From Candidatus Cloacimonadales bacterium (GTDB lineage: Bacteria > Cloacimonadota > Cloacimonadia > Cloacimonadales > JAFGVF01), in the NCBI GenBank assembly GCA_963677495.2, contig CAXXOU010000002.1, positions 288,001-352,000 of the forward strand: a stretch of 64,000 bases of DNA, read 5' to 3'. Below the pieces are notes generated by a model that saw nothing but the letters and a program-made list of their open reading frames with translations, did no database searches and was not told the origin of the DNA. The position numbers and the translations under genes were made by a program. This document shows, piece after piece, positions 46,858-51,692 of this stretch. How positions within the stretch are numbered: the stretch's first letter is position 1; every line of letters starts with the position of its first letter.

Positions 46858-47646
46858 ATGAGCCAGAACTTAGTTACAATAGCCAAATATGATACTCCCT
46901 TTGAAGCTGAATTAGCAAAGACTTACCTTAATGACTGTGGAATCGAAGCAGTTGTTTTTAATGAGTTAATCAATACAATCATCCCCTCATTTGCAGGACT
47001 CAAATATGAGACAGAATTAAAGGTTAATGATGAAGATGCGGATGTTGCAAAAGAACATCTTACTAACATCAATTCTGCCTATGTAACAGAATCTGTACTT
47101 AAAGAATGTGGTTCTCTTTTAGAAGGACATTTCAAACTTACATCCGGTCGCCATAGCAATAAATATGTTGAGAAGATTAAGATTATCCAGGCACCGGATA
47201 AGGTTGAGATTATCTGTAATCGTATGGCTCTTGCTATGAAAGATATCGAATGCGATATTGTTATAGGCCCGGCATTCGGTGCTATAGTGCTTGGCTATGA
47301 AGTAGCCAAACAGCTTGGTAAGAAGTTTGCCTTCTGTCAGCGTAAAGAAGGTGTGATGACCTTTAGAAGCGGTTTCGAAATCAAACCGGGCATGAAAGCA
47401 ATTATCATAGAGGATATCGTTACAACAGGTGGCAGTGTATTTGAAGTTATAGAAGCACTAAAAGAACGAGATGTTGAAGTTGCCGGTGTTGGGCTCATCG
47501 TTGACCGTTCCGGTGGAAAAGTGGACTTTGGTGTCCCTACATTCCCTCTCCTGACTCTTTCAATAGAATCATGGGAACCTGAAGATTGCCCACTCTGTAA
47601 AGCTGGTGTTCCAATTACTAAGCCCGGGAGCAGTGATAAGAAGTAA
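46858..47646 (+). CDS. pyrE: Orotate phosphoribosyltransferase with N-terminal DUF2007-like domain
   Basis: GHFKLTSGRHS, IIEDIVTTGGSV, VDRS; extra ~70-aa N-terminus EAELAK..L...GIEA. Confidence 0.9.
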   Translation: MSQNLVTIAKYDTPFEAELAKTYLNDCGIEAVVFNELINTIIPSFAGLKYETELKVNDEDADVAKEHLTNINSAYVTESVLKECGSLLEGHFKLTSGRHSNKYVEKIKIIQAPDKVEIICNRMALAMKDIECDIVIGPAFGAIVLGYEVAKQLGKKFAFCQRKEGVMTFRSGFEIKPGMKAIIIEDIVTTGGSVFEVIEALKERDVEVAGVGLIVDRSGGKVDFGVPTFPLLTLSIESWEPEDCPLCKAGVPITKPGSSDKK

Positions 47647-49355
47647 TGAAAAGAATTGGTATAACTACCGGTGATCCTGCCGGTATTGGACCGGAGATAG
47701 CTGTAAAAGCTCTCCGGTTTCATTCCTTAAAGCAGGATTTAATATATATTGTTTATGGCTCTTATCCATACTCTAAACATGGATATAAACCTGTTGTGAT
47801 TGATAATGTTGATTTGGCTACTCAGCCTGGTGCTGTTTATCATATTTCAATTGAGAATGACTCCGTTGTTGCTGGAGAACCATCCTCTTCAAGTGGAAAA
47901 GTAGCTTTCGAGATATTGGAAAGATGCAGTGTTGACCTGAACGCAGAAAAGCTTGATGGTATTGTGACAGGGCCTGTTTCCAAAGAGTATATAAAACCCT
48001 TTGATAATGAGTTTATAGGTCATACAGAATATCTGGCTAAACGTTCCAATGTTGATGATGTTGCAATGACTTTCTGGGGTCCGGTGTTTGATTTGGCACT
48101 CTTATCAACTCATAAAGGTCTTTGTGAGTTATCTGAATATCTCACAGAGGAGAGAGTAGAGAGTATGCTTCGCTTAATCCATAAAGAGTATACAAAAATC
48201 AAGCCCAAAGCAAAGATTGCCTTACTCGCAATTAATCCCCATGGGGGAGAGAATGGGATGTTTGGTAGTGAAGATATCATGATGGAAAAAGTGGTATTGC
48301 GTCTTGCTGAGGATGATATCTATATTGATGGCCCTTTCCCTGCTGATACGTTCTTTGCTTACAATCTTAAAGGTTATGATTTAGTCATTTCACCATATCA
48401 TGATCAAGGTCTTATTCCATTCAAAATGCTTTCAAAAGGAAGCGGAGTAAACGTAACTTTAGGATTACCTTTCTATCGTACTTCAGTGGATCACGGTACA
48501 GCATTTGATATTGCCGGCACTGGAAGGTCTGATTCTGCAAGTATGAAATCCGCTTTAGAGTGGCTTGAAAAGCGACTCTCAGATGAAAAGATTACAAGTA
48601 CATCATACAATATCTTTGCTGAATACTATGATGACTATATGGGGCATGTTGACTACAAAGGCTGGATGAACCTTGTTTTAGATGAATATAAGCTGGTCTA
48701 TAATCAGGAACCTTCAAAGGTTTTAGAGATTGCATGTGGTACTGCCAATGTTGCTTGTCAGCTGGTTAAGAAAGGTTTTGATGTAGATGCTAGTGATAAC
48801 TCAGAAGCTATGCTATCTATTGCAGCAAAAAAGAAGTACTCTCCAAATCTTTATCTTGCCGATATGGCAGATGTTATTGATGGGAAGTATGACTTGATTC
48901 TTTGTTTGTTCGACAGTGTTAACTACCTTCTAAAAATTTCGCAAGTTGAGCAGATGTTCTTAAATGTGAAGAACGCACTAACCGATAATGGAATGTTCAT
49001 ATTCGATGTCTCGACTCTACGAAATAGTATTGAGAACTTTGATGATTTCGTGAATATCGAATCTAATGATGAACTCTTAATGCTCCATGAAGCGGAGTTT
49101 GACTCAAAACGCTTAAAACAGTACTCTAATCTTACGCTCTTTAGAAAAGATATGTATGGATATAAAAGATATAAAGAATCTCATTTACAGACTGTTTATC
49201 CGCTTTCTGAGTTGATTAGTTCAATCGTTAAATGTGGTCTTGATATAAGAGAGATAAAATCACCTACACATCATAAGAGTCTTCTCTCTATGCAACCGGA
49301 AGCTATTGAAGATGAGTTTGAACGTGTCTTCTTCTGTGTGACTTCTAATGAATAG
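47646..49355 (+). CDS. pdxA: PdxA-family dehydrogenase fused to a class I SAM-dependent methyltransferase
   Basis: GDPAGIGPE, GHTEYL, NPHGGE, YHDQGL, RTSVDHGTAFDIAG; then YYD..Y..W, LEIACGTA, FDSVNY. Confidence 0.88.
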   Translation: MKRIGITTGDPAGIGPEIAVKALRFHSLKQDLIYIVYGSYPYSKHGYKPVVIDNVDLATQPGAVYHISIENDSVVAGEPSSSSGKVAFEILERCSVDLNAEKLDGIVTGPVSKEYIKPFDNEFIGHTEYLAKRSNVDDVAMTFWGPVFDLALLSTHKGLCELSEYLTEERVESMLRLIHKEYTKIKPKAKIALLAINPHGGENGMFGSEDIMMEKVVLRLAEDDIYIDGPFPADTFFAYNLKGYDLVISPYHDQGLIPFKMLSKGSGVNVTLGLPFYRTSVDHGTAFDIAGTGRSDSASMKSALEWLEKRLSDEKITSTSYNIFAEYYDDYMGHVDYKGWMNLVLDEYKLVYNQEPSKVLEIACGTANVACQLVKKGFDVDASDNSEAMLSIAAKKKYSPNLYLADMADVIDGKYDLILCLFDSVNYLLKISQVEQMFLNVKNALTDNGMFIFDVSTLRNSIENFDDFVNIESNDELLMLHEAEFDSKRLKQYSNLTLFRKDMYGYKRYKESHLQTVYPLSELISSIVKCGLDIREIKSPTHHKSLLSMQPEAIEDEFERVFFCVTSNE

Positions 49356-49965: not shown

Positions 49966-50063
49966 GCTAGTAAACAAGCTTTTCACTATTCAGATTTCTA
50001 AGTCATAACAGATAATTCTACATGATTTCACGCAGCATTCTCTGTTACTTCTTGCCTATTTTA

Positions 50064-50142
50064 CCACGGATGAACCACGGGTAAACCACACCCAAACGAC
50101 GGGAGCCGTGGTTAACCCGTGGTTTACCCGTGGTCAACCCGT
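50064..50142. repeat. 11-bp-periodic inverted repeat array (IS110 target), continuing after the IS at 51539
   Basis: CCAC at 50064/50075/50086; GTGG at 50108/50119/50130; fourth unit CCCGT|GGTTAA split by the IS. Confidence 0.8.
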
Positions 50143-50156
50143 TGTATATTGACATT

Positions 50157-50330
50157 ATATGATTAAATAACAGGATTTGAAAAAGAATAAGGGAAGATGA
50201 ACAAGCTATATGACCCGTTGAGTCCACAAACTCGTTAGCCATGTTTAGCCCATCTTCCACTTAGTCTGAACAGTACATTGGGCATTAAAGCCCGTATTTT
50301 ACAATGATAGACTACTTGTTCTTTTATTTT
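50157..50330 (+). ncRNA. Predicted IS110 bridge RNA
   Basis: Outer stem 50181-50191/50315-50325; target loop stem GGAAGATG/CATCTTCC; donor loop stem TAGTCT/AGACTA; loop segments match the donor and target junctions; ends approximate. Confidence 0.78.
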
Positions 50331-50346
50331 TGTAAAGGAGAATATT

Positions 50347-51330
50347 ATGAAAAAGAAAGTGATTGGAGTAGATGTATCAATGGAGAAGCTAGATATAGTG
50401 ATTTACGATGGGAATAAGCACAAGCATTCGATAATTGATAATACTCCAAATGCCTTTGAAAGATTCTTAAAGCGATTTGCTTCCGGCTCTGTTCATATAT
50501 TCATGGAAGCAACTGGTGTCTATCACATTCAGATTGCTGTTAAAGCTTATGAACTAGGTCATAATATCTATGTAGTTAATCCTCTTGTTATTAAGAGTTT
50601 TTCTGATGCTATGATGAGTAGAGCTAAGACGGATAAAGTAGATGCTAAGATGATTGCTGAGTATGGTTACAAATGTGATTATAGACCTTTTTCTCCATCA
50701 TCAAAGGCAAGATTAGAGTTGTTAGAACTATTAAGAGATTATAACTATTTAATAGAAACACAAACCAAGATATCCAATCGTATTCATGCATATAAGCATG
50801 GTTTACAGGTGTCTAAAGATGCTCAAAAAGTTCATAAATCACTACTTAAAGAGATCAAGAAAAACATTCTCATGCTAAAGAAAGCTATCGAACAAATAGT
50901 AGTTAAAAGCTATCACAGGATATATAATAAACTTATTGCAATCAAAGGTGTAGGAATTATGACTATTGCAACAGTTATTGCTTTTTATGAAGATTTCACA
51001 GATTTTGAGACATCAAAACAAGCTATTTCTTTTGCTGGTATGAATCCACATATTCGGCAATCCGGAAAAAGTCTTAGGGGACGTGGAAGCATAAGTCGAA
51101 AAGGTAGCCCAGAGATTAGGAGGATGCTATATTTAGCTGCGGGAGTAGCCAGGATACATAATCAGTATTTTCAAGAGTTTTACGTCAGATTAAGAAGTAG
51201 AGGTAAAAGTTATAAGCAAGCAATAGTAGCTGTAGCCAATAAGCTTCTACGCCAGATCTTTGCCGTTGTTAAGTATGACAGAGAATGGATACCTAATTAT
51301 GCTTCATTAAGAGAACAACTTGGTGCATAA
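50347..51330 (+). CDS. IS110 family transposase/recombinase
   Basis: IGVDVS, MEATG, KTDKVDA (DEDD RuvC-like); IKGVG, QSGKS catalytic Ser, A.VAVANKL. Confidence 0.95.
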   Translation: MKKKVIGVDVSMEKLDIVIYDGNKHKHSIIDNTPNAFERFLKRFASGSVHIFMEATGVYHIQIAVKAYELGHNIYVVNPLVIKSFSDAMMSRAKTDKVDAKMIAEYGYKCDYRPFSPSSKARLELLELLRDYNYLIETQTKISNRIHAYKHGLQVSKDAQKVHKSLLKEIKKNILMLKKAIEQIVVKSYHRIYNKLIAIKGVGIMTIATVIAFYEDFTDFETSKQAISFAGMNPHIRQSGKSLRGRGSISRKGSPEIRRMLYLAAGVARIHNQYFQEFYVRLRSRGKSYKQAIVAVANKLLRQIFAVVKYDREWIPNYASLREQLGA

Positions 51331-51692
51331 TAATCTGAATGTAATAGTATTGTGGACAAGTATCGTTCGGAGATAACTTATCCACAATCCACGCCTAATG
51401 GAGCTTCTCACTCAAGCTCCAATAGTCGTGGTGTGGAATGTGGGTAAGTTAAGATACTTGCCCATGATGCTATGGAATGTAGTCTGATTTAATATTGTTA
51501 AATTGTCGAATATTTTATTGACGTGAGATACAGTACATGGTTAAGTATGCTGATTCTAACAGTGTATAAGTACTTTAAGAAACTTAGGAAATAATCATTA
51601 AAATGGGATTATATTGTTAAACCAATAATACATACAAATAGGGGAGAGCATAGATATTACTATGTCTTACCGATAAAAAGAAATTATATCAA

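Follow-up and report, generated by a model that had tools for sequence, protein, structure and literature searches.

Bridge recombinases are under development as programmable tools for genome rearrangement, and among the solved systems IS621 and ISCro4 lie closest to the locus described here. The published rules for site choice demand the same core dinucleotide in donor and target, and the design rules for ISCro4 ask for matching cores between sites and for no matching base at position 7 (10.1101/2025.05.14.653916). Of the two core bases, the first has been noted to vary more than the second, which is nearly invariant (PMC11208158). In the published geometry the top strand is cut 3′ of T9, leaving a 3′-OH on that base (PMC13626964, PMC11208158), and two preprints place excision and insertion mainly or only on the top strand (10.1101/2025.10.25.684509, 10.64898/2026.08.31.748434). 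Here we describe an IS110-family insertion sequence of 1396 bp, located at 50143-51538 (+) of a 64,000-nt stretch of a Candidatus Cloacimonadales genome (assembly GCA_963677495.2, contig CAXXOU010000002.1, positions 288,001 to 352,000), which we call the window. Its layout comprises a 204-nt non-coding left end, a gene for a 327-aa recombinase and a 208-nt right end.

This element is a member of the known IS110/IS621 bridge-RNA kind and is ordinary apart from its core, which reads AT in the donor and GT in the target. The discordance at the first core base is real, and it is common to at least two unrelated elements. Judging from the sequence, we hold it probable (about 0.8) that the element is intact and works like IS621, and that a position 8 split between the RNA guides, together with the exchange of top strands, explains the discordance.

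Donor and target cores in lineage A

The genome that contains the window (G000; 3.4 Mb in 4 contigs, 37% G+C) was searched with the 1396-bp interval, and four elements were recovered. These are the copy in the window (A1), a full-length second copy on another contig (A2; G000:C4:269223-270618), which is 98% identical to A1 and has different flanks, and two copies of a B-type element that is 71% identical to A, with a protein identity of 57%. The ends of the element could be fixed because the second copy occupies a different site and because three empty paralogous copies of the host repeat are present. With a slash marking the boundary, the junctions read ...GTGGTCAACCCGT/TGTATATT...ACAGTACAT/GGTTAAGTATGC in A1 and ...CACGGGTTTACCCGT/.../GGTAAATCCGTGG in A2, and 1396 bp is exactly the length that the target gained on insertion. 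A single base, T, is common to both junctions, and the boundary slides by 1 nt at most; empty and occupied sites share only this one T, and target duplication beyond the shared core is absent. The sites and the guides that read them are as follows, all on the + strand, with the left half and core of each site numbered as positions 1-9.

50057-50142, +: host repeat, 86 bases of a dispersed repeat, an array of 11-bp-phased CCGTGGT words of which the last is interrupted by the element
50134-50142, +: left target half and target core, TCAACCC-GT (positions 1-9), the same in the empty paralogous sites and matched by the left target guide at positions 4-9
51539-51545, +: right target half, GGTTAAG, continuing the GGT[C/A].AGTATGC of the empty sites; the right target guide pairs with it with one G-T wobble
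51530-51538, +: left donor half and donor core, ACAGTAC-AT, identical in both A and both B copies
50143-50147, +: right donor half, TGTAT (joined-end positions 10-14), with pairing to the right donor guide at positions 8-13
50210-50218, +: left target guide (LTG), ATGACCCGT, encoding GT and identical to the left flank at positions 4-9 in both copies
50235-50244, +: right target guide (RTG) with handshake bases, TTAGCCAT-GT, encoding the core AT
50270-50278, +: left donor guide (LDG), ACAGTACAT, identical at 9 of 9 positions to the right end at 51530-51538
50299-50307, +: right donor guide (RDG) with handshake bases, TTACAAT-GA, pairing with joined-end positions 7-13

The element family thus described uses an 11-bp-phased host repeat array as its insertion target. 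The three uninterrupted copies of the repeat elsewhere in the genome are 92-94% identical to 50057-50142, over which the summed contig depth is about 20-35 times that of the flanks. At these empty sites ...TCAACCCGT is followed by GGTCGAGTATGCC, GGTAAAGTATGCC or TGTCAACTGCC, that is, the sites read ...TCAACCCGT-GGT... or ...TCAACCCGT-TGT..., with a single GT and no AT. The empty-site evidence for A is paralogous throughout; in the close relative G002 the same flanking genes enclose a shorter intergenic region. Two additional occurrences of ACAGTACATGG were set aside, as they lie in an unrelated repeated context and an 11-mer is expected about 1-2 times by chance in this genome. Excision scars of the A type were sought in the genome as TAC[AG]TGGT in the context of an array; of 44 matches to the motif, two are the right junctions of A1 and A2 and the remaining 42 all lie outside arrays.

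In both A copies, GT stands at the left junction and AT at the right junction. Donor and target therefore differ at position 8 (A in the donor, G in the target) and share C7 and T9, so that of the core itself only T9 is common, and the identical dinucleotide of IS621, CT, has no counterpart in A. The original prediction had named these two cores, and the two insertions and three empty sites bear it out. The strings on which it was built are likewise all in place: TTGACG at 51518-51523, ACAGTAC-AT at 51530-51538, the left end TGTATATT from 50143, and the guide strings ATGACCCGT (50210-50218), TAGCCAT (50236-50242), ACAGTACATTG (50270-50280) and TACAATG (50300-50306). The comparison with other copies and empty sites that it had proposed returned the same ends in A2 and in the three paralogous sites.

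The guides of A divide at position 8. The target and the LTG carry G, and the donor, RTG, LDG and RDG carry A or U. In lineages B, C, D and E (C, D and E being from other genomes of the order), CAT occupies positions 7-9 of target, donor and each of the four guides, the sole exception being the left donor guide of C, which reads AC. We attribute the order of the cores, GT on the left and AT on the right, to top strands that are cut 3′ of T9 and exchanged, because the left junction then keeps target positions 1-9 and the right junction keeps donor positions 1-9. If a heteroduplex were resolved at random, the same polarity in two copies would be expected about 1 time in 4. The pairing also changes with the exchange: with two more bases included (TTAGCCATGT), the RTG pairs with target positions 7-15, the pairs at 8 and 12 being wobbles; after the exchange its G-U wobble at position 8 becomes an A-U pair and a pair is gained at position 6, and the target-loop handshake passes from one pair and a wobble to four Watson-Crick pairs at donor positions 6-9.

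How might such an element move? Joining of its ends would bring the -35 hexamer of the right end together with the -10 hexamer of the left end, and the promoter so formed would drive transcription of a bridge RNA of about 170 nt and, after it, of the recombinase gene. The joined ends, ACAGTAC-AT-TGTAT, would be read by one loop of this RNA, and the last word of the host repeat, ..ACCC-GT-GGTTA.., by the other. The mismatch at position 8 would be tolerated for two reasons. First, the RNA is split, with G in the LTG and A or U in the RTG and both donor guides. Second, the top strands would be cut after T9 and swapped, and GT would stay at the left junction and AT at the right. Transcription, circle formation and the order of strand exchange are here modeled on the family.

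Discordant cores are also found outside the genome. Junctions were placed automatically in the metagenome loci that encode related recombinases, and eight loci passed the thresholds on both sides: four have AT in both places (L054, L060, L047, L051), two are discordant (L049, L052), and two we consider misplaced. The latter, L068 and L073, were rejected, as the register of the left guide differs in the group formed by L066, L068, L073 and L106; L066, their sister, reads ATATAC-AT/CCTAAG when placed by eye. L049, with a protein identity of 35%, is a GT/AT element: its left junction reads TATACCA-GT/CCTAA, with 9 of 9 positions matched by the LTG, and its right junction ACAGTTC-AT/TGTTG, with 9 of 9 matched by the LDG, and its RTG codes AT. 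L052 is a TT/AT element (GACGTC-TT/CCTAT and ACAGTTC-AT/TGCGA). At L059 a left guide coding GT stands at an AT site, which gives a G-T wobble on the other strand. Among the 23 right junctions that passed the thresholds, 21 have AT and two have TT. These findings fit the near-invariance of the second core base noted in PMC11208158, and they contrast with the rule of matching cores for site choice (10.1101/2025.05.14.653916). The prediction had ascribed the tolerance to a wobble in the right target guide, and this holds in so far as U8 wobbles with the target G and forms a Watson-Crick pair with the donor A; it is not the whole story, because the TT/AT combination of L052 allows no wobble, and the wobble is therefore not essential.

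These natural exceptions, which comprise two insertions of one element and two unrelated metagenome elements that differ in the first core base, suggest a further idea, which we put forward tentatively and rate somewhat below even odds. Position 8 may be a wobble-coded, direction-setting position and not a must-match site, with the LTG following the target and the RTG following the donor. Where a G-U wobble or a mismatch had stood, top-strand exchange would then leave an A-U pair, much like a third handshake base, and an RNA with G in its left and U in its right guide could accept either purine at target position 8. If this were general, the 'matching cores' rule for choosing sites for bridge recombinases would be stricter than the enzymes require. 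The division of the guides between the two versions of the core yields a testable prediction on which core combinations are workable.

The bridge RNA and its guides

The 204-nt non-coding stretch between the left end and the ATG lies upstream of the recombinase gene, as is the case for the long non-coding region of the IS110 group; in the IS1111 group this region lies downstream (PMC11187229). The RNA that it would encode has these parts.

50185-50323, +: core of the bridge RNA, matched by model R1 (G000:C2:338185-338323) with 139.7 bits
50191-50258, +: target-binding loop, with basal stem GGGAAGATG/CATCTTCC, an internal loop and a distal hairpin at 50219-50234
50262-50314, +: donor-binding loop, with basal stem TAGTCTG/TAGACTA and a distal hairpin at 50280-50293

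From the position of the -10 hexamer, the RNA would start near 50157. The 190 nt from this predicted start to the ATG fold with -43.5 kcal/mol (z = -2.9), and none of 200 shuffles folds as well. The left ends of eight elements of five lineages (A, represented by A1 and A2, and B, C, D and E) were aligned; the stretch GTAT.TTGACA is invariant among them, and the RNAalifold consensus consists of two stem-loops, both built of basal stem, internal loop and distal hairpin, in which 16 of 38 pairs are kept through two-sided (compensatory) changes. A covariance model built from seven of the eight left ends finds exactly the four known elements in the window's own genome. When it was run against 85 loci of related recombinases from metagenomes and genomes, it gave 38 matches at E values up to 1, and 33 of the 85 loci match at E<0.01, with the match always on the strand of the recombinase gene and immediately upstream of it. 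In the alignment of the 38 matches, which was fitted to the model and hence favours the structure, two-sided changes occur in 33 of 34 pairs, and 91.2% of the cells are paired; the share is 64.8% in shuffles, none of 500 of which attains the observed figure, and 39-49% with the partners slid. A search with bridge-RNA covariance models had been suggested as a check, and with a model made from relatives it was positive. Rfam 15 gave no bridge-RNA family above threshold, its sub-threshold hits being chance matches to microRNA and snoRNA models, and an exact 37-nt pattern of the target loop had no match in the metagenome contigs.

The guides were taken as the strands of the internal loops from fixed alignment columns and were compared with the flanks and ends of each element. 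In each loop the left guide has the same sense as the top strand and the right guide is complementary to it, and the two overlap at the core. Over the ten non-core positions, guides agree with the flanks of their own element at 8-10 positions, and guides compared with the flanks of other lineages agree mostly at 3-6, with the closely related B and D reaching 8-9. The guides of B read AGGGACC-AT-TCGAAAG, and an uninterrupted copy of exactly that site lies beside one of the B copies (L003); D reads AAGGACC-AT-TTGAAAG, E reads ATCAACC-AT-TGCG and C reads ..CGTC-AT-CCTGA. Within C itself, a change of one guide base is accompanied by a change of one flank base. From the sequence, natural retargeting among the sister lineages thus speaks for programmable loops, as PMC11208160 uses the term. 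The word 'reprogrammable' in the prediction stands only in this sense of guides that change together with flanks. Its wider claim, an architecture of the IS621 type, is upheld by the domains PF01548 and PF02371, the aligned catalytic residues, the two-loop RNA upstream, the compensation in the stems and the covariation of guides and flanks.

Three further observations on the RNA and the left end may be recorded. In L029, L030, L031, L054 and L052, which include lineage C and some of the metagenome relatives, a left donor guide ending in ..AC faces an element end in ..AT, which makes a conserved C-A mismatch at position 9, a position that is otherwise invariant. L032, whose left end starts at locus position 1373 and runs downwards on the - strand, has a tandem duplication of the 16 bases with which that end begins (TGTATATTGACATCAT). 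At 50279-50304 of the window, the distal hairpin of the donor loop is followed by TATTTT and was flagged as terminator-like; termination there, if real, would leave some transcripts lacking the right donor guide. For CazIS110-1, a truncated target-loop RNA has been reported (10.1101/2025.10.25.684509).

State of the element and alternative explanations

The remaining parts of the element, all on the + strand, are the following.

50347-51330, +: recombinase gene, 327 aa, the sole long open frame in the interval, with the ribosome-binding site AAAGGAG at 50334-50340
51343-51476, +: long conserved hairpin of the right end, about 130 nt, -64.8 kcal/mol
51518-51523, +: -35 hexamer TTGACG of the junction promoter, by consensus match only
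50145-50150, +: -10 hexamer TATATT, by consensus match only; the predicted promoter would need joined ends

The protein carries PF01548 (1.8e-25, residues 6-148) and PF02371 (3.8e-22, residues 195-279), the DEDD RuvC-like and Tnp domains, and its only solved relatives are the recombinases of ISCro4 (1.1e-30) and IS621 (3.3e-30; phmmer, residues 5-309). Its residues D9, E54, D96, D99 and S239 align with residues 13, 62, 104, 107 and 243 of the chain 8wt6_A, which are D11, E60, D102, D105 and S241 of IS621 if two extra N-terminal residues are assumed in that chain; these five are essential in the IS621 recombinase (PMC11208158). A1 and A2 differ at 26 positions, of which none is in the 204-nt left end, 19 are in the gene (14 synonymous, 5 non-synonymous) and 7 are in the right end, a pattern that fits purifying selection on both copies. 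The element had been called intact, and this can be said of its sequence, with a gene that has changed mostly at synonymous positions and an unchanged left end. In the 151 genomes of the order, a protein search gave a match at 1e-40 in 8 genomes, mostly at contig ends, and a scan of genome contigs with the single protein gave only 3 distant relatives (30-32% identity), none of them matched by the RNA model.

The joined ends of A would read TTGACG, 17 nt, TATATT, which agrees with the consensus at 10 of 12 positions, and equivalent predicted pairs in all 8 aligned elements agree at 9-11 of 12. A promoter across joined ends has been described for IS621 (PMC11208160). In the integrated A1, at 50123-50150 of the window, the repeat word supplies a weaker -35 hexamer (TTTACC, 16 nt, TATATT; 9 of 12), an arrangement that the A2 flank does not have; it could allow low expression without circularisation, and we draw nothing from so weak a match.

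The hairpin of the right end is 87% identical in the B-type elements; the right ends of lineages C and D are short and lack it. Solitary copies of it (85-87%) were found in a congeneric genome, at L039 499-620 (-) and L040 442-522 (+), one right after an IS3-type integrase gene and the other after a gene for a secreted protein. The hairpin contains words that we take to resemble the DnaA-box consensus (TTATCCACA).

The target of the B-type sister element is a REP-like hairpin; a regular expression finds 70 copies of it in the same genome, 57 of them with G-AC-CAT at positions 4-9. The commonest variant is G-TA-CAT, which occurs in 3 copies with different loops (C4:608562(-), C4:67257(-) and C4:1141403(+) of G000). 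It has the B element's own donor bases at positions 5-6 and breaks the hairpin stem, and one of the copies contains all nine bases of the donor end but no element. By their sequence, these copies look like scars of excision or of abortive insertion.

Upstream of the element, an open frame at 47646-49355 of the window encodes 569 aa, which is of fusion length; judged from its translation, the N-terminal half is PdxA-like and the C-terminal half methyltransferase-like.

Might position 8 lie outside the crossover site of this subfamily altogether? The shared site would then be C7-N8-T9, or T9 alone, with a stagger other than that of IS621, and nothing would be 'tolerated'. We find this rather doubtful. 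It agrees with the variation of position 8 among the five lineages, in all of which donor and target share C7 and T9, with the TT/AT cores of L052, where a wobble is impossible, and with the 3 of 70 REP copies that have donor bases at positions 5-6, a hint of a bottom-strand crossover further to the left than in IS621. However, most elements in which both junctions were placed have A8 in the donor, the target and all four guides, and position 8 is still covered by all four guides.

A second possibility, which we regard as unlikely, is that the element is a stranded relic with the right anatomy that is no longer mobile, so that GT and AT record past events and not present tolerance. There are only two A copies, 2% apart, and ten sites in the genome that match ACCCGTGG[CT][TA]A are unoccupied; the contigs of four sequencing runs (one sample of one study) contain neither a circle junction nor an empty allele, which is uninformative, as contigs break at the repeats. 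On the other hand, the reading frame is open in both copies with the catalytic residues kept, the gene has more synonymous than non-synonymous changes, the left end has none, and the sequences of the ends and of the junction promoter are intact. Finally, that the G of the left junction is a mutation that followed insertion into AT-core sites is very improbable: AT-core words do occur in arrays (of 92 words tallied, 3 have AT and 69 have GT at the core place) and ACCCATGGT occurs 7 times in the genome, but the G is present in both independent insertions and in three empty paralogs, the left target guide itself encodes it, and the unrelated element L049 has the same pattern.

We therefore return to the reading of an intact element of the IS621 kind with a split position 8, against which several points must be set. 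No direct sign of activity was seen: the sequencing runs that were listed include none of RNA, the absence of a circle junction and of an empty allele from the contigs counts here as well, with the limit just given, and the distance of 2% between A1 and A2 means that neither insertion is very recent. LTG positions 1-3 are unmatched to the flanks in most lineages. The donor-loop handshake of A gains no pair after exchange and loses one Watson-Crick pair to a wobble; those of B, D and C gain. The geometry of strand exchange is borrowed from IS621 and CazIS110-1, relatives that are about 30% identical or of unmeasured identity, and a bottom-strand cut between positions 5 and 6, as in IS621, does not explain the donor base at position 5 in the three REP copies. 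Promoter-like matches are no commoner in the region than in shuffles (10 versus 7.3 +/- 3.0), and the sigma-70 consensus used for scoring may not be that of this phylum.

Comparison with known systems

The likeness to IS621 of E. coli (PMC11208160, PMC11208158) extends through most of the element. First, the A1 recombinase has the same two domains and the same five catalytic residues. Second, both have an upstream non-coding RNA with a target loop and a donor loop, each of which reads both strands around a two-base core. Third, both have a promoter across the joined ends, predicted in A, and insert into a dispersed host repeat. The left donor half of A, ACAGTAC, also resembles the positions that are given in the text for IS621 (dA6, dT7; position 5 = T). 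The prediction had named a very similar IS621 donor string; this string does not appear in the main text of PMC11208160 and is presumably confined to its figures, and the bases named in PMC11208158 (dA6, dT7, C8, T9 and dT9*/dA10*) agree with it. In contrast, the two recombinases are only distantly similar; where both partners of IS621 have a CT core, the donor of A has AT and its target GT; and A has C7 in donor and target, its LTG matches only positions 4-9, and its right end is 208 nt long with a hairpin of 130 nt.

ISCro4, or IS622 (PDB 9t56; 10.1101/2025.05.14.653916), is the closest solved relative by sequence and has the same RNA scheme with handshake guides, yet the natural A element breaks both of its published design rules, that on core matching and that on position 7. 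ISPpu9 (PMC12288879) is an IS110-family element with a small structured module, Ssr9, downstream of the recombinase gene and with solitary copies elsewhere. By analogy, the right-end hairpin of A may be a passenger module of this kind; it is likened to Ssr9 by its arrangement, whereas the A module is a hairpin and its solitary copies were seen only in a congeneric genome.

ISPpu10 of Pseudomonas putida (10.64898/2026.03.19.712850) likewise inserts into a REP-type target and has a junction promoter. At its guide interfaces, as in A, G-U and G-T wobbles occur naturally, and distal LTG mismatches are tolerated. It differs in that both partners have a CT core; a requirement for a target stem-loop has been shown for ISPpu10. 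For CazIS110-1 (10.1101/2025.10.25.684509) and in the 'half-match' study of IS621 (10.64898/2026.08.31.748434), copy-out and insertion of the top strand have been proposed. Those proposals come with biochemical results, whereas A is known here from its sequence. Such models would make the junctions follow the top strand, as they do in A, with GT on the left and AT on the right, and the discordant core that we describe agrees with these recent top-strand-only models of IS110 movement. A limited search of the literature, which did not extend to the papers' supplements, found no printed account of natural discordant cores to place beside that of A, in which the target core GT and the donor core AT stand apart in the order that a top-strand exchange would give.

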